Shown here: positions 2,995-41,575 of the stretch, piece after piece | Layout: every line of letters starts with the position of its first letter | Position numbering within the stretch: the first letter of the stretch is position 1 | Assembly: GCA_021323655.1 (NCBI GenBank) | Contig: JAJPKO010000043.1 | Location: 22,337-86,336, forward strand | Reading direction: 5' to 3' | Length of the DNA stretch: 64,000 nucleotides | From: Acidobacteriaceae bacterium | GTDB lineage: Bacteria; Acidobacteriota; Terriglobia; Terriglobales; Acidobacteriaceae | Made by a program: the position numbers and the translations under genes | Notes under the pieces: model-generated | What the model was told of the DNA's origin: nothing | Database searches by the model: none | What the model saw: only the letters and a program-made list of their open reading frames with translations

Positions 2995-3426
2995 TTGCCG
3001 AAAATCCTGATCGACGAAAACCTGAGCCCTTAGCTGACGGCCGACGCACAGCAGAGGGGCTTTCTGTGTTCGCACGTCAACCATCTCGGCAAGACAGGCA
3101 CCAAAGACTGGGAACTCAAGCGCGTCATTCTGGAAGGCGACTGGACATTCGTTACCAATAACAGCACCGACTTTCGCGGGCCTGCGAATGAACCAGGCTC
3201 TTCTGGCGAATACGCGGACGTGCGCCTGCACGCCGGCTTGATCTGCATCGATGCGCCATTTGGCTTGAACCTGGACCTGCAGCGGCAGATCTTTGGACTG
3301 ATCCTGGACGAACTCGCGAAGGATGGCGACCTCACCAACCAAGTACTGCAAGTTGATGTGAGGAAAGACGGTCGAGTCGAACTCGAGCGCTTTGCTCTGC
3401 CTGCGGAAGAGGCTGACCGCTCCTAA
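2995..3426 (+). pseudogene. DUF5615 / Mut7-C-like PIN-type toxin homologue interrupted by in-frame TAG (3031-3033)
   Basis: Own translation from the TTG at 2995 gives LPKILIDENLSP*LTADAQQRGFLCSHVNHLGKTGTKDWELKRVILEGDWTFVTNNSTDF... The KILIDENLSP start and the TxDxDF-like segment are typical of DUF5615 partners of DUF433. It is in the same frame as track ORF 3220..3426. Confidence 0.6.
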
Positions 3427-3542
3427 GCAGCCCACTCATCTCCTGGTATCCTCAAAGAGAGAAACTCCCTCCTCATCGTGAGCGATCTCTGACTCGCGCC
3501 TGAATAATCCATCCCAAAAGCCAGCCTGAAGGAGGTGTCCGC

Positions 3543-5906: not shown

Positions 5907-6320
5907 GTGAGTGAGCAACAGGAGAAGATTCGCTGCCGAGGTTGTGAACTGGTTCAGTGGAGCGACCGGAAGAATTGCAGGCGTTGCGGCGCCGTGTTGC
6001 CTGAGCAGGTCGTGAAGATCGTCGAGCGGATTGTTGAGAAGGTTGTAATCCGCCAGGACGCTGAATGTCTCGCCACACTTGAGCAGGCTCAGAAGCTGAT
6101 CGCAATGGCATCGGAACGTCTAAGCCTAAAGACATTCGAACCAGTGTCTCCGCCTCAACCAAATACCTCGTTTCCGACGATGGCAGAGGCGGAACGGGCG
6201 CTCATTCTTGCGGCCTTCCAGAAATCGCGCCGTAAACCTCTCGAAGCCGCGCGGCTGCTCGGGATCGGGAAGACAACCATGTACCGGAAGTTGCGTGAAA
6301 TAAAGGGGATGGCAGCGTAA
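5907..6320 (+). CDS. Zinc-ribbon plus Fis-type HTH DNA-binding protein
   Basis: The N-terminal CRGC..x13..CRRC forms a zinc ribbon. The C-terminal LEAARLLGIGKTTMYRKLRE is a Fis-family HTH. The start is a GTG preceded by AGGAGG. Confidence 0.6.
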   Translation: MSEQQEKIRCRGCELVQWSDRKNCRRCGAVLPEQVVKIVERIVEKVVIRQDAECLATLEQAQKLIAMASERLSLKTFEPVSPPQPNTSFPTMAEAERALILAAFQKSRRKPLEAARLLGIGKTTMYRKLREIKGMAA

Positions 6321-33566: not shown

Positions 33567-34253
33567 TCACGAGCAAAAATGCGATTTCAGGGCCCCTGAG
33601 GGTTGCGATGGAGTCTGAGTCTCAAGCGCGTCTATGACCAGTTGATTCCCATCGGTCTCGACAAAGATCGCGGTAGAATCATCCACCACATAGAAATCCA
33701 GATCGAATGCGCCGATCATGGAATTGCCGCTTGTCTGCAACTCTGGGAACGAGGGGGTACCGCTGCCGTTCGAACGAAGGATCGGGCGATCCTCCAGTTC
33801 CTTCGCGCCAATGGTTCCCTGTGTCCCCGAGTCGGCAATCCCGGTGAGGTCATCCTCGCGGCCCTCGATTTTGAGGGTGGTGCTCATGCCGCCTACTGCG
33901 AGCGATATACGCAGTTGTGCTTCCGTTGTCGCTGCGGCATTGACTGTCACCTGCACTTCTTTGCTCTCGAAGTCGTGATTTACCACGAGAAGCCGATAGT
34001 GTCCTGGCGCCAGCCCTGGAACAACAAAAAAGCCATTCCGGTCAGAGTAGGTCGCTTTTTCGATTGCTCCATTCGCGTCACGGATCTCTACCGTTGCGCC
34101 GACAATTGCCGCGCCGGACGAGTCGACCACGGTTCCCGTGACCTGACACGGTGCCCCTTTGTCAGAGATCTTGCTTCGCAGAAGAGGCGCACATGTGAGT
34201 GCGGTGAGTATTACAAACCTCAAAATCGTGTTCTTGGTTGAAGCAGGGACCAT
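33567..34253 (-). pseudogene. Truncated TonB-dependent receptor N-terminal fragment
   Basis: A signal peptide and a CarboxypepD_reg domain (GTVVDSSGAAIVGATVEIRD..GHYRLLV) are present. The plug starts at GTIGAKELEDRPILR and then diverges. No barrel is present. Confidence 0.45.
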
Positions 34254-34275
34254 CGTTTCTCTCGGCCAGAATCAC

Positions 34276-35193
34276 GTCACGCATGCGAAGATTGCGACGC
34301 CGACCGTTAAGGCTGCTGACATTGTTCGTGATCCCAGCGATCTGCCATCTCCGATCGGCGATCGCGCGCCAGTCGGGATTCGCGTAACCCTCACTTCAAA
34401 GGAGTTGGTCGGAGTGCTTGATCCCACAAGTGGAACGACCTATCGCTATTGGACCTTCAATGGAAAAGTGCCGGGACCGTTCATTCGCGTTCGACAGGGT
34501 GACACAATCGAAATATCTCTCGCGAACCCTAAAGACAGCCTCATGGTCCACTCGATCGATTTCCACGCGGTGATCGGGCCAGGCGGCGGGGCAGCTCTGT
34601 TGCAAGTCCCGCCAGGACAGTCGAAGACCTTCACGTTCGGAGACACGACGCCAAAGGCTGTTCGTTTACCACTGCGGCAGCCCGATGATCGCGCAACACA
34701 TCGCGAACGGAATGTATGGATTGATTCTTGTCGAGCCGGCCAGCGGGCCTGCCCCGCGTCGATCACGAATACTACGTGATGCAGAGCGAGTTCTACACTA
34801 CTGCTCCGAAAGGCAAGTCCGGATTGCAGCAGTTCAGCGGGGAAACCTTTCGACGGAGGATGCGCAGTACTACCTCTTCAATGGAACCGTGGATTCACTA
34901 ACTAGGAGTACCCACTCCACGCCAATGAGGGCGAGACGGTGCGCATCTTTTTCGGCAATGCCGGGCCGAATGCCACTGCCTCTATGCACAAGGTCGGCGA
35001 AATCTTTACCCGCTACTACGAGTTCGGTTCGCTGAGCTCTCCGCCCCTGGAGGGAATTCAGACTGCGACGATTCCGCCGGGCTATGCGGGAAACTTCGAA
35101 GTGAAGGCCAGCGTACCTGGGCAATTCACGTTCATGGATCACGCGATGTCACGAATGGAGAAAGGCGACATGGCTTTCCTCGAAGTGAACACC
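34276..35193 (+). pseudogene. nirK: Copper-containing nitrite reductase, decayed by at least four frameshifts; N-terminal signal region missing
   Basis: NirK-like segments lie in alternating frames: HSIDFHAVIGPGGG; [27 protein letters not shown]; [17 protein letters not shown]; [16 protein letters not shown]; PLHANEGETVRIFFGNAGPN. The frame switches fall near 34650, 34748, 34845 and 34904. Confidence 0.8.
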
Positions 35194-35812
35194 CGGAAAA
35201 CACCGCCTTGGTGCATGCGGGATCACCGGGGAATTGTCACGTCCGGCCCCATTTATCGGAGAACTCTCACTACCGCTGGACTAAATCAAAGGATACAGCT
35301 CAGGTTATTAACCGTCATGACCGATGGGAGTCAGCTTGATCACCGAGGAGCAACATTTGTGAGCCAGATCGAGGCTACGTCGACCAGTGCGTCCTTCTCA
35401 CCATATTTCCGGTCGCGGCAGTCATAGATCACGTCGTTGCCTGTCTGAACGCGAGCCAGTGTGAACGCGCTCTTAAGGTCGCGGCTGTAGTCAAACATGA
35501 GGGTCATGTCTGCCACTATCCCGCTTTCTGAAGGGTTTCGATCAGTTCTTGTTTCGGTTGGTATGTACCGTCTCGTGCTTGACGAGATACGAGAAGACAG
35601 TCCTCAAAAGCGAAGGGCATCCGTTCGGCCATGATGAGTCCCATGAACAACCGGACGCCCTCCTGCGAAGGCCTCTGCCAGCGGTCATCCTTGTCACGAA
35701 GCGCGGTGGTCCAGGCAGGAAGCGGCGATCGAGCTGAGACGCCCATCGTTTCTTCGACGCGACACACCACCTTCGCAGAGCGGGATACCGTTTTTGCGGT
35801 ACCCTCCTTACA

Positions 35813-36307
35813 ATGGCGCAGCGACTGGATAGCATCACACAATTTCGAGTCGATCCGAAGGTACTGAGGGAAACGCTTCTCGTTCTACGGGAGTTCGGCA
35901 AACATTACTGTGAAGGACTTGTTCTCTGGGTTGGCAACATCAGTCGAGATTGCGTAGAAATCAGAGGGATTGCGGTACCGGATCAAACGCCACTGAAAAG
36001 CGAACACGGGGTCGGATATTTTGTAGAGGCAGACGTTCTCTTTACTTTGAACCGCCGGCTGTCCCAGGCGCAGCTCCAGCTGATTGCGCAAGTTCACAGC
36101 CATCCTAGCGATGCCTATCACTCCGAGACGGATGATCGCTATGCGATAGTCACAGCAAACGGCGGCCTATCTCTCGTAGTTCCAAACTTCGGCAACGCTC
36201 CGCCTGACCCCACGCAATGGGCAGTGTATCGACTTTTTAGTGGGGTTTGGAAAGAGCTTCAGCCAGATGAAGTTCGATCGACCATCATCGTTTCGCCCAT
36301 CGAATGA
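35813..36307 (+). CDS. JAB/MPN (JAMM) metalloprotease, candidate deubiquitinase/Ubl-processing enzyme (BilC-like)
   Basis: A Glu in CEGLVLWVG plus QVHSHPSDAYHSETD gives the E...HxHx7Sx2D JAMM motif. It is convergent with the E1 gene, with a 13 nt gap. Confidence 0.75.
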   Translation: MAQRLDSITQFRVDPKVLRETLLVLREFGKHYCEGLVLWVGNISRDCVEIRGIAVPDQTPLKSEHGVGYFVEADVLFTLNRRLSQAQLQLIAQVHSHPSDAYHSETDDRYAIVTANGGLSLVVPNFGNAPPDPTQWAVYRLFSGVWKELQPDEVRSTIIVSPIE

Positions 36308-36320
36308 TCGGTGTGTACGT

Positions 36321-37835
36321 TCATTTGTGTGACCACTTATCTCGGAAGGCGATTTGGTAGTCTTCGTCCAAGCAGATGCACCCGGGTTCTTTCGCTCTCG
36401 GAACAACCCAGACAGACGGCGGAGGAAACAGCACATCCCCCCACGTCACTAGCGTTTCGCGCTGCGATAGGTCCGCCAACTCCGGGTTGGTTCCTTTGAC
36501 CAGTTCCGCGGCCATTAGAACCCCGGCGAGCGCAGATTGATGAGCTAACGGCACGGTTTCAACTCGGTTTACGACCGGAAGTCTAATGGGAGCCGCTCCG
36601 CAGATTACATCCGTATAAAGTTCACCGAGTGGCCTTCCCTGCCATCCGGCTAGTTCAGCAGGATCGACTCCTAGCGTTCGAGCCGCCGTGGAAATATCCT
36701 GTTGCGACAGCGGCGTTCGTGTCACCCATAACGCAGCGGCCCGTTCTGGGGTAAGACCCAGCGCCCGTGCAGCTTGTTCGGTTTGCGAAAGAGAGCGTCC
36801 TTGAGGATGATACAAGCATGCGAGACAAGCCCTTTCATCTGAAGAGTGATGGCTCGACGCTCCCAAGGCGAGATCTCCCGTCCATCCATTGACAACGAGC
36901 CTTGGAAGCAACGCCTGGGCTGCTCGGCGAGTTTCTACGTTGTCCACTGAGATGCATATTGTCGGGCAGGCAATTCCGTTATGTTTATCCGCGTACTCCT
37001 CTAGGGATAATGCTGCCTTCTCCACTTTGATTGCGGAATATCGCAGCTCGCGAGCAGCAATCCAGGTTTTAGGCTTCGTGTGCTCGGCATCCTTGAACAA
37101 TCCGAGGACGTATCTCTGAAGATTAGATGCTTCGACGTGCTCCGGATCGAGCGCAATCAGGCGTCCACGGCGACCGGCATCGCGAGCAAGTGTCCACAGG
37201 GCGGAATTGGCAACGGCTCCGATTCCTGCAAGTAGAACCTCACCGAAGTCGCCTTCAGGCAAGCCTACATTATCCCTTTCCGTTTTCCCGAAGGTGAGCA
37301 AAGAGACGGAAACTTCCGCATCTGAGAAACGGTTTAAGAAGACTCGCCGAAATATTTCCGCGACTGCAAAGCACGCTGAAGCCCCCGCAGCGTATGGATT
37401 GGTTGCGCCATGCTCAGATTTGGGCGCAAACCAAAGTCGAGAGAACCACCCGTTGGCGGATGGCCAGATCCCAGCGGGCGAGGTCGTATGACCGATGCCT
37501 ATTGTTAGCTCCGCAGGTGCTGTATTGCAGAATTCAATTGCCGGGTTGATCCGAACTGCAAGTCTCCTCAATCGCTCTAGATCCTTCTGGGATCCATTTA
37601 TAGACAAGCTCGGATACAGTCGTGCAAGCAGATTCGTGGCAAGCTCGGCTGTCCACCACTCGTTTTCTGAAAGAGTTGCGCCGCACGCAAGGCCTACGCG
37701 GACATCTTTCAAGGATGCAGTTAGATCTTCGCGTCCAACGGACAGGTGACCACCAATCGCTGAATAGACACGATCGAAAAAGGGAGCGAGGGCCAATTTT
37801 AGGGCTTCTCCTCTGCCGCCCAAGTAAACTGGCAT
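36321..37835 (-). CDS. E1-like ThiF-family adenylyltransferase with N-terminal extra domain (BilD-like)
   Basis: LLAGIGAVANSALW is a nucleotide loop and ALDPEHVEASNLQRY is the ThiF motif. It also has CLACLY and a C-terminal CIC. The N-terminal 190 aa are consistent with an inactive adenylation-like domain. The start is uncertain because it overlaps the E2 gene by 37 nt. Confidence 0.7.
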   Translation of the reverse strand: MPVYLGGRGEALKLALAPFFDRVYSAIGGHLSVGREDLTASLKDVRVGLACGATLSENEWWTAELATNLLARLYPSLSINGSQKDLERLRRLAVRINPAIEFCNTAPAELTIGIGHTTSPAGIWPSANGWFSRLWFAPKSEHGATNPYAAGASACFAVAEIFRRVFLNRFSDAEVSVSLLTFGKTERDNVGLPEGDFGEVLLAGIGAVANSALWTLARDAGRRGRLIALDPEHVEASNLQRYVLGLFKDAEHTKPKTWIAARELRYSAIKVEKAALSLEEYADKHNGIACPTICISVDNVETRRAAQALLPRLVVNGWTGDLALGASSHHSSDERACLACLYHPQGRSLSQTEQAARALGLTPERAAALWVTRTPLSQQDISTAARTLGVDPAELAGWQGRPLGELYTDVICGAAPIRLPVVNRVETVPLAHQSALAGVLMAAELVKGTNPELADLSQRETLVTWGDVLFPPPSVWVVPRAKEPGCICLDEDYQIAFRDKWSHK

Positions 37836-38425
37836 CCGGACTCAGTGATGGAACACTGGAGGCTGGGAAGGTCCACGCACACGCGCCAGACAGAAAGAAT
37901 TATCGAGAAAAGATTCATACTCGGCCGATAAAGAAGCCATTCGTCTCCAGAGTGCTGAGGGTGGGAGTGGTACTCGCGAATACCGCGGACACAGAGAAAT
38001 GGCATGTGAGTCAGCGGATGATCAGCAATTAGGACTTCATGCGGACCACGACCTACGTTGTACTCCAGAGCTCGAAACATCGTATTGAACGACAATGGAG
38101 TTCCTGTCCAAGGGTTCAAAAACACCAGCGACGGCGGCTCGAGATCATAATCCGAGAGATCAAATCGCGCCGTGAAAGCAGACGGGGCAAGCGCTTCTAT
38201 ATCCTGCGCAACCAGAACAGGCGCCCCGAGGAATAAATTCCCCTGTCGTAACTGGGTTGTCCAGATGCGCAAGGGGTGATGAGCCACAAACAACAGATCA
38301 AGAAGGGGGTAGGCAGAGGAGCCTAGAAGGTATACACCGCGACGCTCGAGGTCAGCTCGCCTCTCTTGAAGTCGGGAGAGCTCTCGGTCGTATTTGGATC
38401 GATTGACCTTGGGATCAATCCTCAT
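37799..38425 (-). CDS. Prokaryotic E2-like protein (BilB-like)
   Basis: It lies between the Ubl and E1 genes. PFLCVRGIREYHSHPQH carries a conserved-looking Cys in an E2-like loop. Its ATG overlaps the Ubl stop (ATGA). Confidence 0.55.
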   Translation of the reverse strand: MRIDPKVNRSKYDRELSRLQERRADLERRGVYLLGSSAYPLLDLLFVAHHPLRIWTTQLRQGNLFLGAPVLVAQDIEALAPSAFTARFDLSDYDLEPPSLVFLNPWTGTPLSFNTMFRALEYNVGRGPHEVLIADHPLTHMPFLCVRGIREYHSHPQHSGDEWLLYRPSMNLFSIILSVWRVCVDLPSLQCSITESGCQFTWAAEEKP

Positions 38426-38703
38426 GGCCTGTGTTTCGCGCCACCTGCTCCAACGGCCAAGTTCAGATAAAGTTTTGTTCCGTTCAAAAATCCAAAATCG
38501 CTGATCTTACGGTTCACGTCCAGCAAATTTCCGCTTTCATCCCGCACCTGCCACTCTGACGCAGGCCGGCCCGTATTGCCGCTTTCTGCGAGGGCACGCG
38601 CCACTGCTTCTTTCAGAGGTGGATTTGTATTGGTCTCAACTGCGAAGCTCGCGCCATTGATTATGAACGCGAGCGTAATCTTCTGTTCAGTGTGTGCCAC
38701 CAC
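38422..38703 (-). CDS. Ubiquitin-like beta-grasp protein with internal C-terminal GG (BilA-like)
   Basis: 93 aa. It is the first gene of the operon and ends ...LYLNLAVGAGGAKHRP, a Gly-Gly followed by a 5-residue tail that a JAB protease could remove. Confidence 0.6.
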   Translation of the reverse strand: MVAHTEQKITLAFIINGASFAVETNTNPPLKEAVARALAESGNTGRPASEWQVRDESGNLLDVNRKISDFGFLNGTKLYLNLAVGAGGAKHRP

Positions 38704-38815
38704 GACCCTCCGAAGAAAAAATAAGCGGCGTTAAGGCAAAATTCTGACCCTCAGCCTTTCGTGCTCCTCATGTGATGCAAAGCCCGTATCAAAAGGAGTA
38801 CATTAACAATATACT

Positions 38816-38846
38816 TTGCTTCATTATGAGTCAAATGTGCTATATT
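38816..38846 (+). promoter_or_regulatory. Candidate MerR-type promoter (19 nt spacer) for the MerR-like gene
   Basis: TTGCTT, then 19 nt, then TATATT, with the -10 box ending 9 nt before the GTG at 38856. It lies in an AT-rich divergent intergenic region. Confidence 0.3.
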
Positions 38847-38855
38847 TAATGACCT

Positions 38856-39383
38856 GTGGAAATTGGGTTCACTGCGCGGCAAGTGATTAAGTTAACAGGG
38901 GTTCCGTATTCTACCCTCAACCTTTGGGCGAAGAACGGTCTGGTGCAGCCGAGTGTGGCCTCGGGCAGCGGAACGGGGACGGAACGCATTTATAACTTCA
39001 GCGATCTCGTCGCATTGAAGGTCGCGTTTGGATTGAGAAGATCGGGTGTTTCCACATCGGCACTCAAGAAGGTTGTGGAGTTTCTCCGTCACGACGAAAG
39101 CATGAATAAGCCCCTAGCTGAGGCTCGGCTCATCGTGAGCGGACGCGACGTCGCCATGGTGCGCGAGGGAGAACTTGTCAGTGTGCTTTCGAGGCCAGGG
39201 CAGGGTTACCTGAAGTTCGTCGTTGACCTCCCGCAAGTGCTCGGAGACCTGGTGAACGTCGCCGATGCGGCAAGGACATTTGCCCATGGAATCGCATCAG
39301 GCGAACCGATTGCAAAGACAAGCAAGAAAGGGCCGACATCCGTTCTGAGCTCAGCTTCACGCGCAAAAATCAGTAGGCGATAG
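38856..39383 (+). CDS. MerR-family HTH regulator
   Basis: FTARQVIKLTGVPYSTLNLWAKNGLV....RIYNFSDLVALKV is the MerR N-terminal HTH pattern. It is divergent from the Ubl operon. Confidence 0.7.
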   Translation: MEIGFTARQVIKLTGVPYSTLNLWAKNGLVQPSVASGSGTGTERIYNFSDLVALKVAFGLRRSGVSTSALKKVVEFLRHDESMNKPLAEARLIVSGRDVAMVREGELVSVLSRPGQGYLKFVVDLPQVLGDLVNVADAARTFAHGIASGEPIAKTSKKGPTSVLSSASRAKISRR

Positions 39384-39642: not shown

Positions 39643-40527
39643 GTGGATCAACTGGAGCAATTGAAAGAGCTGTTATCTGAGCCGAAACAGAGAATCAAAC
39701 TGCACGATTTCATTGCAGATGTTACGAGGAAACTGGTTGCCGACGTCGGCCAGGACAGGCTTCCGGTGCAAGTGTCCTCGGATGGCAATTCATTCATCGT
39801 TCGTCTTCAAGAGTATGAGCATGCCCTTCACACGGTCATTCCGCTCCAAATGCTTCTGGGCCGATGGGGATTGCAGGAACATGTCGATATCGCGGCTCTT
39901 CCATTGCGGAGACTTGCAGGCGGTATTGCGGCTACGGGCGGCAATACTTATTTGATAGAAGCGCGCTGGTATCCGATCTTTTTACTGCTTTACGCGAGCT
40001 CTATCGGCGCTATCTCTGGAAACAACTGCCAGGTTGTTTACAAACTTGCCCACGCTCCCGTGCCCAACCCCTATGGCAGAGAAAATCATGACATTCTCCT
40101 CTCTGCGGCATTTAAGGCAATGGCAGAAATCCAGGATGGATTCAAGCTTTTTCCCGGATTAGACCGCAAATACACCCCGCGAAGCGAACATGTCTACACG
40201 CTGCTTGAACCGTGCGCCGATAAGACCCTCTATCTCGGTCCCGAATATGAAGAACTCTTCGACAGGGTCGAAATCCTGTTGGCCATCGAGTACATGCATA
40301 TCGAACATCCCGAGCCAATTGCCAAGGAGGAGAGTCCCTGGGGCCCGGTCGGAAGGTTTGGGTGGAAGAGATCGTCCCGCAATCCCTTGGACCGATTGAT
40401 CGCTGAAGCTTCTGCCGCCGGGAAGAGTTGGGAACCCGCCCGCGCCGGTCTGTTCGGGAGTTCCAGCGCGAGGTTCGTCGAACTTGCAGAGGGACTTGCT
40501 CGCATGGTGCGTCGTGCTTCCTGGTGA
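39643..40527 (+). CDS. Hypothetical protein (GTG start, no motif recognised)
   Basis: 294 aa ORF, convergent with the TIR gene. Confidence 0.4.
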   Translation: MDQLEQLKELLSEPKQRIKLHDFIADVTRKLVADVGQDRLPVQVSSDGNSFIVRLQEYEHALHTVIPLQMLLGRWGLQEHVDIAALPLRRLAGGIAATGGNTYLIEARWYPIFLLLYASSIGAISGNNCQVVYKLAHAPVPNPYGRENHDILLSAAFKAMAEIQDGFKLFPGLDRKYTPRSEHVYTLLEPCADKTLYLGPEYEELFDRVEILLAIEYMHIEHPEPIAKEESPWGPVGRFGWKRSSRNPLDRLIAEASAAGKSWEPARAGLFGSSSARFVELAEGLARMVRRASW

Positions 40528-40603: not shown

Positions 40604-41575
40604 TCATTGAAGTGGTTGGATGAACAAATCCCAAAAGAGCTCTGCCGCGCCCTGCGGCGACAGCTTTTCTTTGTCGCGCCGTCCGTAGGACTGCATACCT
40701 AGCGACTGAAAATAGAGCGTCTGATCGTCGGCTTTTACAGAAACCGCCTCGTTCATTCCGCCGTGTCGTGGATTGTCATCCATGACATATTCAATGCTCT
40801 CAGAACTGAAGCTTCCACCAGCAATGGAGGCCGAACCCTTGCAGACCTTTTGCCCATGCTGGTACAGCGCAGCTGTGAAGTGGGTCGCATCTACCCTCTG
40901 AAAACGTTGATCGATACCTGGATTTCTCTTCACAAGCTCCTGCATCGAGTTTTCAAAGAAACGTGCGATGAATTCAAAGCCGTCGTGCCGGAATCGATCC
41001 CGGTCGAGGTCCGTAAACTCTTTTTTAACGCGGAGATTGCTCGAGCGCTGGCCGCCGAGCGACTCCGAGACATCGTCCATCCACACCGGCTTGGAAAGCA
41101 CTGCGGACGGGGAAAGCGCCAATTTGTGCTCTTCCCCAAGCTCCTTCACTGCCGCCTTTATGGCGCGCTCCACATCGAGGAATGCTTCATCGATGTTTGC
41201 CCAAGTCGTGATCGGCTTGCCGTCGCGTGGGACAGCCAGTAGTTTACCGAAGGGCAGATCGTGCCAGTCGCAAGGCCGAAGAATGATCGGGATCACACGC
41301 GCGTCCCCCTTTTCGTGTCGCTCGATGGCACGCGCCATCTCGCGCTCATAGCAGTAGTCCGAGGCGATGAAGTCTGAACTCACCAGAAGTAGAATTATCT
41401 GCGAGGCATTGAGGTTCCGGTCGATTGCATCCCCGACCGGAGTGCCGGCAGTGATCCGGCGATCGTGCCAAGTCGCGATCAAATCCTGCCGCTTGAGTGT
41501 TGCAAGATGGACTTCCAATTGATTTCGAAGCGTCTCATCCACATGCGAATAGGAAAAAAATAGGTTGGGAGCCAT
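40604..41575 (-). CDS. TIR-domain protein with about 180 aa uncharacterised C-terminal domain
   Basis: LFFSYSHVDETLRNQLEVHL...IILLLVSSDFIASDYCYEREMARAIERH...VIPIILRPCDW is a near-consensus TIR_2 domain with the catalytic-position Glu. Confidence 0.8.
   Translation of the reverse strand: MAPNLFFSYSHVDETLRNQLEVHLATLKRQDLIATWHDRRITAGTPVGDAIDRNLNASQIILLLVSSDFIASDYCYEREMARAIERHEKGDARVIPIILRPCDWHDLPFGKLLAVPRDGKPITTWANIDEAFLDVERAIKAAVKELGEEHKLALSPSAVLSKPVWMDDVSESLGGQRSSNLRVKKEFTDLDRDRFRHDGFEFIARFFENSMQELVKRNPGIDQRFQRVDATHFTAALYQHGQKVCKGSASIAGGSFSSESIEYVMDDNPRHGGMNEAVSVKADDQTLYFQSLGMQSYGRRDKEKLSPQGAAELFWDLFIQPLQ

Follow-up and report, generated by a model that had tools for sequence, protein, structure and literature searches.

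A probable Type II Bil ubiquitin-like conjugation system with a convergent protease gene in an uncultured acidobacterium

The clearest bacterial counterpart of eukaryotic E1–E2–ubiquitin-like protein (Ubl)–deubiquitinase (DUB) chemistry is found in the CEHH/6C operons, which were renamed Type II BilABCD by Chambers et al. 2023 (PMC10557695). In the crystallised system of Ensifer aridi TW10, the CEHH protein has an E2 fold in which the CEHH cysteine is the catalytic Cys, and what Pfam calls Prok-E2_C in the E1 is an inactive adenylation domain (IAD) paired with the active domain in a pseudo-dimer like that of eukaryotic E1s (PMC10557695). All Type II Ubls share a conserved C-terminal Gly, behind which come at most about nine non-conserved residues, and the gene order bilA-bilB-bilC-bilD on one strand is consistent across all 162 described operons (Chambers et al. 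preprint, PMC10557695). The locus analysed here lies in a 64-kb stretch of acidobacterial DNA (contig JAJPKO010000043.1; hereafter the window) and comprises genes for a Ubl (bilA), an E2 (bilB), an E1 (bilD) and a JAB/JAMM protease (bilC). With a probability of roughly 0.85, it is judged by homology to be a complete, apparently intact Type II Bil (CEHH/6C) Ubl conjugation system with an inherited, rewired layout, belonging to an uncultured Alloacidobacterium-like acidobacterium.

An initial annotation, made from the nucleotide sequence, had proposed Ubl, E2 and E1 genes on the minus strand and a JAB gene on the plus strand, and the list of open reading frames (ORFs) agrees (Table 1). As read from the sequence, bilA and bilB overlap by 4 nt, the ATGA described initially being visible as ccATGAgg, and a 2-nt gap separates bilB from bilD. 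The bilC and bilD stop codons are indeed 13 nt apart, and the spacer leaves no room for a terminator hairpin. The motifs AGIGAVAN, NLQRY, CLAC, PFLC...REYHSHPQH and E...HSHPSDAYHSETD were all found again. When the PDB was searched by sequence, all four window proteins matched the E. aridi structures 8TYX, 8TYY, 8TYZ and 8TZ0, each with its own counterpart at E-values from 4e-66 to 3e-18. Judged from these alignments the similarity is far beyond chance, and the proposal of a four-component Bil-type module is borne out: the small protein proved to be beta-grasp-like, the 208-aa protein E2-like, and the E1 was found to retain its adenylation residues. Every residue proven important in E. aridi by mutation or structure is kept in the window proteins, and those of the E1 and E2 show no variation across the aligned homologues.

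The Ubl consists of a single Pfam DUF2604 domain (1e-24) and aligns with E. aridi BilA (8TYX_A and 8TYZ_B, 3e-18) such that G88 and A89 are paired with Gly97 and Ala98. The ending originally reported, ...LAVGAGG-AKHRP, is correct (C-terminus LAVGAGGAKHRP); the conserved Gly is followed by a five-residue tail, which places the predicted processing site between G88 and AKHRP. Among the Ubls of the clade described below, VGAGG is invariant and precedes a variable tail of 0–11 residues. Since the window BilA carries AKHRP beyond Gly88, processing by the DUB would be needed before adenylation. The gene has two adjacent GTG codons, of which the second (38700) is better spaced from GGAGG and is the one called by JGI; translation may start there, giving 92 rather than 93 aa.

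The 208-aa product of bilB is recognised in Pfam as Metal_CEHH (2e-20), a ‘predicted metal binding domain’, and aligns with the crystallised E2(BilB) chain 8TYZ_C (5.8e-19). Its CEHH motif, C145/E151/H153/H158, corresponds to Cys138/Glu144/His146/His151 of E. aridi and is invariant in 31 homologues; C145 is predicted to be catalytic, together with H158, and E151 and H153 to be structural. An AlphaFold2 model, built from the window protein and 30 homologues, reached a predicted local distance difference test score (pLDDT) of 72. Foldseek comparison of the model with the PDB placed 8TZ0_C, 8TZ0_D and 8TYZ_C at the top (E = 7e-6 to 9e-5, probability 1.00), ahead of Ubc7p (5e-3) and then UBE2G2, UbcA1, Ubc1 and E2Q. 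Given the pLDDT, this is moderate model-based evidence for an E2 fold. The window E2 alone carries a non-catalytic substitution, D104N, at an otherwise invariant column.

For the E1, the initial annotation had given 504 aa from ATG 37835. That ORF would overlap the upstream gene by 37 nt, and more than 100 homologues, spanning 487–500 aa, align only from its residue 14; the identical NCBI-derived protein has 491 aa. A TTG codon at 37796, 2 nt past the E2 stop, gives MALAPFFDR, in agreement with the family consensus MALAPFFERVYGA. On the basis of homologue lengths, the NCBI call and the consensus match, the real start is almost certainly this TTG, and the E1 is taken as a protein of 491 aa. NCBI also lists a 313-aa ‘hypothetical protein’ in the 90% cluster of this E1.

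The E1 aligns over its full length with BilD chain 8TYZ_A (4e-66), and Pfam assigns it an N-terminal Prok-E2_C region plus ThiF (4e-07). The N-terminal domain first described as ‘extra’ is therefore the IAD, since this is what the Prok-E2_C region represents. The ThiF domain does look active, as had been claimed, with adenylation, zinc and catalytic-Cys residues all kept. The Arg finger R9 in the IAD equals E. aridi Arg9, and the active adenylation domain (AAD) contains the G-loop 190–197, R228 (in SNLQRY; E. aridi Arg246) and D285, the Asp of the SVDN motif, for which no E. aridi equivalent is cited. The zinc site C324/C327/C473/C475 matches Cys340/343/491/493, and the catalytic C399, in the helical CYS insertion, matches Cys417. 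Overall identity is approximately 34–35% to canonical members and 50–76% within its own clade. Database names mislead here, because the E1 goes under Prok-E2_C in Pfam and under ‘E2 ligase fold family C protein’ at NCBI, and Metal_CEHH or ‘putative metal-binding protein’ (now Y4jH-like) denotes the true E2. Taken at face value, the Pfam labels put the E2 inside the E1 and would contradict the original reading; the PDB search resolves this.

The bilC product matches Pfam Prok-JAB (9e-07), the PADLOC BilC profile (9e-14) and DUB(BilC) in 8TYX_B (1.9e-23). Its predicted catalytic residues are E34 and D107 (E. aridi Glu33 and Asp106) plus H95, H97 and S104; the two columns at which it alone departs from an otherwise invariant residue, A48V and G87Q, are non-catalytic. 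Logan and NCBI call the gene correctly (Mov34/MPN/PAD-1). The JGI and ENA calls for contigs that carry the window sequence (L002/L003) miss it and report opposite-strand ORFs. The locus thus holds an annotation lesson, with the E1 and E2 misnamed in Pfam and NCBI and bilC overlooked by two gene callers. The space upstream of bilC is occupied by two minus-strand ORFs of 58 and 108 aa, called by JGI and without a family match, the longer of which shares 30 nt with the start of bilC; on the minus strand, a strong AAGGAGGG lies right at the bilC start codon. The location of bilC on the strand opposite to bilABD implies that protease dosage is uncoupled from the conjugation enzymes, and a separate promoter for the JAB gene can reasonably be inferred.

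By homology to the E. aridi system, a conjugation mechanism can be predicted with high confidence. The BilC protease would trim AKHRP from the BilA precursor and expose Gly88, which the active adenylation domain of BilD (R228 and D285, with the IAD Arg9 finger) would adenylate. Through its Cys399, which lies in the mobile helical CYS domain, BilD would then form a thioester with the Ubl and hand it to Cys145 of BilB, docked on the zinc-stabilised C-terminal region of BilD. BilB would in turn move the Ubl onto target lysines without a dedicated E3, and BilC may also be able to reverse the conjugation.

Compared with the crystallised Type II BilABCD system, the window locus has the same four families, with significant matches to each crystallised component: an E1 with IAD, AAD, CYS domain and zinc site, a CEHH E2, a single beta-grasp DUF2604 Ubl with Gly and short tail, a JAMM DUB and no E3. 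The kind of system is therefore already known and structurally characterised; what is new is the rewired gene layout, gene order being the single feature of the Type II definition in which the locus departs. The published order is Ubl-E2-DUB-E1, on one strand, also seen in the y4j-region operon of pNGR234a, whereas in the window bilA-bilB-bilD run together and are followed downstream by bilC on the opposite strand, which makes the layout a real departure from described systems. The locus further differs in having a MerR-type regulator rather than CapH/CapP, and in its soil acidobacterial host, the described hosts being mostly Rhizobiaceae. With it, Type II Bil reaches into soil Acidobacteria, and the gene order reported as ‘invariant’ turns out to have exceptions.

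The suggestion of a Bil-type system was sound, but its equation with the ISG15-like Type I systems (Collimonas; Millman 2022, Hör 2023) was not. Type I BilABCD, with gene order A-B-C-D, shares the component logic of Ubl, E2, JAB and E1, and weak profile matches were obtained for BilC (9e-14) and BilD (1e-08); however, the PADLOC BilA and BilB profiles found no match, and the Type I Ubl has two beta-grasp domains where the window Ubl has one. Type II CBASS (cyclic-oligonucleotide-based antiphage signalling; Cap2/Cap3) systems likewise use a JAB protease and E1/E2-type chemistry for adenylation and transfer, but Cap2 is an E1–E2 fusion that conjugates a CD-NTase, whereas the window E1 carries an IAD, not an E2, at its N-terminus; the PADLOC E1–E2 matches reach only ∼ 1e-3, and no CD-NTase was detected among the neighbours in the Pfam and PADLOC scans. 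The Bub operons likewise have E1/E2-type adenylation and transfer chemistry. They are described as using oxyester intermediates, with Ser in place of the catalytic Cys, and a DUF6527 protease; the window differs in having a catalytic Cys in both E1 and E2 and a JAB protease, and the Pfam scan returned no DUF6527.

Relatives were collected by scanning metagenome contigs with an E1 homologue alignment, which gave 77 loci; a scan of genomes with the single E1, for which the peptide patterns were too specific, added one locus from a metagenome-assembled genome (MAG). Annotation by phmmer with the window proteins left 64 informative loci. In 59 of these, bilA-bilB-bilD is followed, beyond ∼ 2.3 kb, by bilC on the opposite strand; 37 are complete, 21 are of this type with the contig ending within the intervening genes, and one comes from a Gemmatimonadaceae MAG (L001). 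Two loci (L029 and L061) have bilC directly convergent as in the window, two, apparently the same sequence (L059/L060), have A-B-D-C on one strand, and the most distant (L075, 34% identity) has the canonical A-B-C-D. The E1 gene of L060, one of the A-B-D-C loci, is interrupted by an insertion of ∼ 2.5 kb. The arrangement that had been called unusual is thus unusual against the published order but not peculiar to this locus, a convergent JAB gene being the norm of the clade, which occurs patchily and in more than one phylum (Acidobacteriota and Gemmatimonadota).

The 2.3-kb interval holds two genes on the bilC strand, encoding an ABC-type ATPase (∼ 480 aa) and a protein of ∼ 300 aa designated X. 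The ATPase matches Pfam AAA_15 and AAA_21 and the PADLOC profiles for NsnB (∼ 1e-48), AriA and GajA. Across 29 non-redundant loci, bilC runs into the ATPase gene with an overlap of 4 or 1 nt in 20, and no gap between the two exceeds 7 nt; the ATPase stop and X start overlap by 4 nt in 22; and the X stop lies between -36 and +24 nt from the bilD stop. These tight junctions indicate that bilC-ATPase-X is an operon abutting bilABD head-on, and the 13-nt junction of the window is the same type of junction minus two genes. All four window proteins have their closest homologues in the six-gene relatives (such as L067, L007 and L083), where the E1 is 50–60% identical. In these, as in the window, the bilABD order is kept, bilC is convergent and the genes of the two strands meet at a tight stop-to-stop junction; the difference is the NsnB-like ATPase and X, translationally coupled to bilC, and no homologue of either was found in the 64-kb window, even at E ≤ 10. 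From the gene content of these loci, the convergent layout is inherited, the usual form of the clade being bilABD converging on bilC-ATPase-X.

In a neighbour-joining tree of E1 sequences, rooted on L075 (100 bootstraps, moderate support), L061 is basal in 99 of 100 replicates. The window falls inside the crown group, with a sister group made up entirely of six-gene loci in 71 of 100, and L029 falls elsewhere. This placement is explained more parsimoniously if the window and L029 each lost ATPase-X secondarily and independently, and the window is most likely, judged from the tree, a minimal form that arose in this way. A search on both sides of bilC for inverted or direct repeats, which might mark an inversion or a deletion or form an operator shared with the bilA promoter, gave only short matches at chance level.

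These comparisons raise the tentative idea, rated a little short of an even chance, that the functional unit is six genes in two convergent operons. ATPase-X would be the sensor/effector arm missing from four-gene Type II Bil, the inverted bilC would couple the DUB to that arm, the window would be a core-only derivative, and X might be a nuclease-like toxin. If true, the window shows a conjugation core persisting without the ATPase-X arm. The natural minimal forms (the window, L029 and L061) provide built-in comparison cases. Most of the interest lies in the six-gene clade rather than in the window's own four genes: through this locus a large sister clade came to light whose DUB gene is in translational coupling with those for an ABC-type ATPase and a context-restricted protein family, which offers a tangible approach to the sensor, effector or target-selection step still missing from these systems. 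No description of a convergent bilC or of a bilC-ATPase-X operon was found in the searchable literature, though one may exist elsewhere.

Protein X contains the conserved motifs WRxPQI, DxDPWD, CxLPxP, WRxGxAF and VWxWD...ERHWDVQ. The family comprises 207 clusters at 50% identity, all of ≤ 330 aa, and no fusions or longer relatives were found among 1.84 billion representatives. Homologues from a profile search lie on contigs that match the lengths of the E1-homologue contigs, the distant homologues P0416 and P0385 have the same six-gene layout, and in the loci and contigs examined X was seen only beside Bil genes. X received no Pfam or PADLOC family assignment, and a profile search found no PDB sequence match. 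Its AlphaFold model is confident (pLDDT 91.3), and Foldseek found nothing in the PDB better than E = 0.4. The weak fold matches comprise a PIN-like region (VapC20, HARP) in ∼ 80 N-terminal residues and a C-terminal beta-domain that is weakly colicin-E3-like (56 columns, probability 0.47), and 2 of 21 members touch Pfam Ntox37 (E = 0.05). A nuclease-like effector or toxin is, on these matches, purely a hypothesis for X.

Several points weigh against the view of the window as an intact Type II Bil system with the inherited layout and a defence role. The locus census was seeded with motifs of this clade's E1, and so is biased towards the clade. The window E1 has the longest branch of its subclade and alone deviates at four otherwise invariant positions (G174R, G196A, W315S and R435G), which could reflect relaxed constraint following ATPase-X loss; none of the four is catalytic, and the active E. 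aridi E1 likewise has GxGxxA in its glycine loop. Upstream of bilC, the scan for promoters and terminators found no promoter-like site and there is no obvious Shine-Dalgarno sequence; the totals of that scan equal the shuffle expectation, so that the missing promoter carries little weight. A multicopper-oxidase/NirK-like gene that is probably a pseudogene precedes bilC on its strand at a distance of ∼ 400 nt. Antiviral defence by Type II Bil was itself proposed from genomic context (PMC10557695), and a later paper describes its targets and biological consequences as unknown.

The role of the locus is probably defence or conflict-related, as inferred from the ThsB-like TIR gene that adjoins it. 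The alternative that best survives is the same chemistry serving a stress-response or housekeeping modifier, a plausible reading of a system whose authors regard targets and consequences as unknown and allow that the pathways may be stress-response ones. The MerR-type regulator divergent from bilA belongs to a typically stress-responsive kind, and base composition offers no clear signal of foreign origin. In the latter respect the AT-richness suggested by the initial annotation did not hold, as the GC content of 0.540 for the locus against 0.559 for the window is equalled or undercut by 12% of same-size windows and is not significant. Such a role is nevertheless unlikely, although it deserves to be kept in view: the locus adjoins ThsB-like TIR and PDC-S65-like genes, a relative (L067) sits next to a full Thoeris system, further relatives adjoin integrases and CapH/CapP-like regulators, the relatives' ATPase resembles the defence ATPases NsnB, AriA and GajA, and the distribution is patchy and crosses phyla.

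A decaying remnant, in which the four genes are non-functional or becoming pseudogenes after loss of ATPase-X, would account for the nesting of the window in a clade that almost wholly carries ATPase-X, and for the long branch and the lineage-specific substitutions at otherwise invariant positions. Decayed flanking genes had been noted initially, and this was correct for one side only, where the multicopper-oxidase/NirK-like gene is broken by frameshifts over three frames, only its first fragment still matching Cu-oxidase_3; the neighbouring PDC-S65-like ORF, too, spans only the C-terminal part of its profile. Since the genes themselves are intact, this explanation is disfavoured and seems improbable. 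None of the four ORFs is truncated or lacks a catalytic residue, the gene set is that of canonical four-gene Type II Bil, which is biochemically sufficient, identical copies occur in nine contigs from independent assemblies, and two further lineages (L029 and L061) share the minimal form. A sulfur-carrier or cofactor-biosynthesis cluster of the ThiF/MoeB–ThiS/MoaD type with an unrelated JAB neighbour, towards which the ThiF domain of the E1 and weak NCBIfam MoeB/ThiF matches might point, was rejected as very improbable, on NCBIfam scores of 16–29 bits against family cut-offs of 266–510 and on the presence of an E2 with its catalytic Cys, and it also sits badly with the eukaryote-like IAD+AAD+CYS pseudo-dimer (rather than a single-domain homodimer), the co-occurrence of JAB with bilABD in essentially every relative and a Ubl tail that needs a protease.

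Table 1. Features of the Bil locus, its surroundings and selected relatives. Positions in the window are those of the 64-kb stretch; others are locus coordinates.
Feature	Source	Position	Strand	Basis
bilC, JAB/JAMM Zn-metalloprotease (DUB), 164 aa	window	35813-36307	+	Prok-JAB, PADLOC BilC, 8TYX_B matches
Spacer between convergent bilC and bilD stop codons, 13 nt	window	36308-36320		sequence
bilD, E1, 491 aa from TTG 37796	window	36321-37796	-	8TYZ_A match, Prok-E2_C + ThiF
bilB, CEHH-type E2, 208 aa	window	37799-38425	-	Metal_CEHH, 8TYZ_C match, Foldseek
bilA, single beta-grasp Ubl precursor, 93 aa (92 if GTG 38700)	window	38422-38703	-	DUF2604, 8TYX_A/8TYZ_B
bilA/merR divergent intergenic region	window	38704-38855		sigma70-like site, inverted repeat
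Sigma70-like site upstream of bilA	window	38834-38806	-	TTGACT-17-TATTGT
Imperfect inverted repeat (candidate MerR operator)	window	38801-38853		by eye
MerR-family helix-turn-helix regulator, 175 aa, divergent from bilA	window	38856-39383	+	Pfam MerR_1 9e-10
Multicopper-oxidase/NirK-like gene, probable pseudogene	window	34159-35427	+	Cu-oxidase_3 (first fragment)
Two ORFs, 58 and 108 aa	window	35340-35842	-	JGI calls
PDC-S65-like gene, 294 aa	window	39643-40527	+	PADLOC PDC-S65 (C-terminal part)
TIR gene, 323 aa	window	40604-41575	-	PADLOC ThsB
bilC missed by JGI and ENA calls	L002/L003	9532-10023		same sequence as window
bilC-ATPase-X	L067	8471-11374	-	
bilC-ATPase-X	L007	8470-11389	-	
bilC-ATPase-X	L083	5017-7975	+	
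Regulator divergent from bilA	L029	1599-2538	-	Peptidase_M78
Regulator divergent from bilA	L007	5535-5897	-	XRE-type
Regulator divergent from bilA	L060	2522-3067	-	XRE-type
Locus with split E1 gene	L060	4186-8197		
E1 residues 1-91	L060	4186-4458		
E1 residues 95-489	L060	7022-8197		
Non-coding stretch upstream of bilA	L067	~5985-6060		shared with L005
Non-coding stretch upstream of bilA	L005	~3375-3450		shared with L067

The MerR gene is divergent from the Ubl gene, as first described, and is a candidate local regulator of the locus. A sigma70-like site precedes bilA, and an imperfect inverted repeat (ACATTAACAATATA ... TATATTTAATGA), seen by eye, brackets the promoter-like hexamers of the merR–bilA intergenic region. 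This candidate MerR operator was missed by the repeat finder because its arms differ by an indel. No MerR homologue was found beside the Bil loci of the relatives examined. A conserved clade regulator was therefore rejected, as MerR is unique to the window and the relatives have XRE, M78 or nothing recognisable. Where a gene divergent from bilA was identified, it encodes an XRE-type helix-turn-helix protein (L007, L005 and L060) or Peptidase_M78 (L029), which resemble CapH and CapP, a pair present in 15% of canonical Type II operons (PMC10557695). With MerR in the window where some relatives carry M78/XRE, the regulatory module appears to be exchangeable. Enrichment of k-mers across ∼ 40 relatives gave no clade-wide motif upstream of bilA or bilC. 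Two relatives, L067 and L005, have in common a non-coding stretch upstream of bilA (GAGGCGATGAGAAAGCGAA...GTTGCGCTCG...CCAAAGTGTA) that is absent from the window and may be a promoter, operator or leader element.

The window sequence recurs identically in the nine contigs, which come from JGI, ENA, Logan and NCBI assemblies, one being a MAG named Alloacidobacterium sp. No tRNA gene was found in the 64-kb window. A recurrent TIR link through pNGR234a (TIR/Y4lF) was considered and discarded, there being no TIR gene within 9 kb of its Bil operon. Beyond MerR in the window, a full-length PADLOC ThsB match (2.7e-124) was obtained for the TIR protein, and the protein encoded by the adjoining gene matches only the C-terminal ∼ 285 positions of the PADLOC PDC-S65 profiles; no ThsA was found in the 64 kb, and the two genes may form a truncated or non-canonical Thoeris-like pair. 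A homologue of the TIR gene also adjoins the Bil locus of L033. The N-terminal part of the PDC-S65 profiles is also matched by the ThsA of L067, which carries a SIR2 domain.

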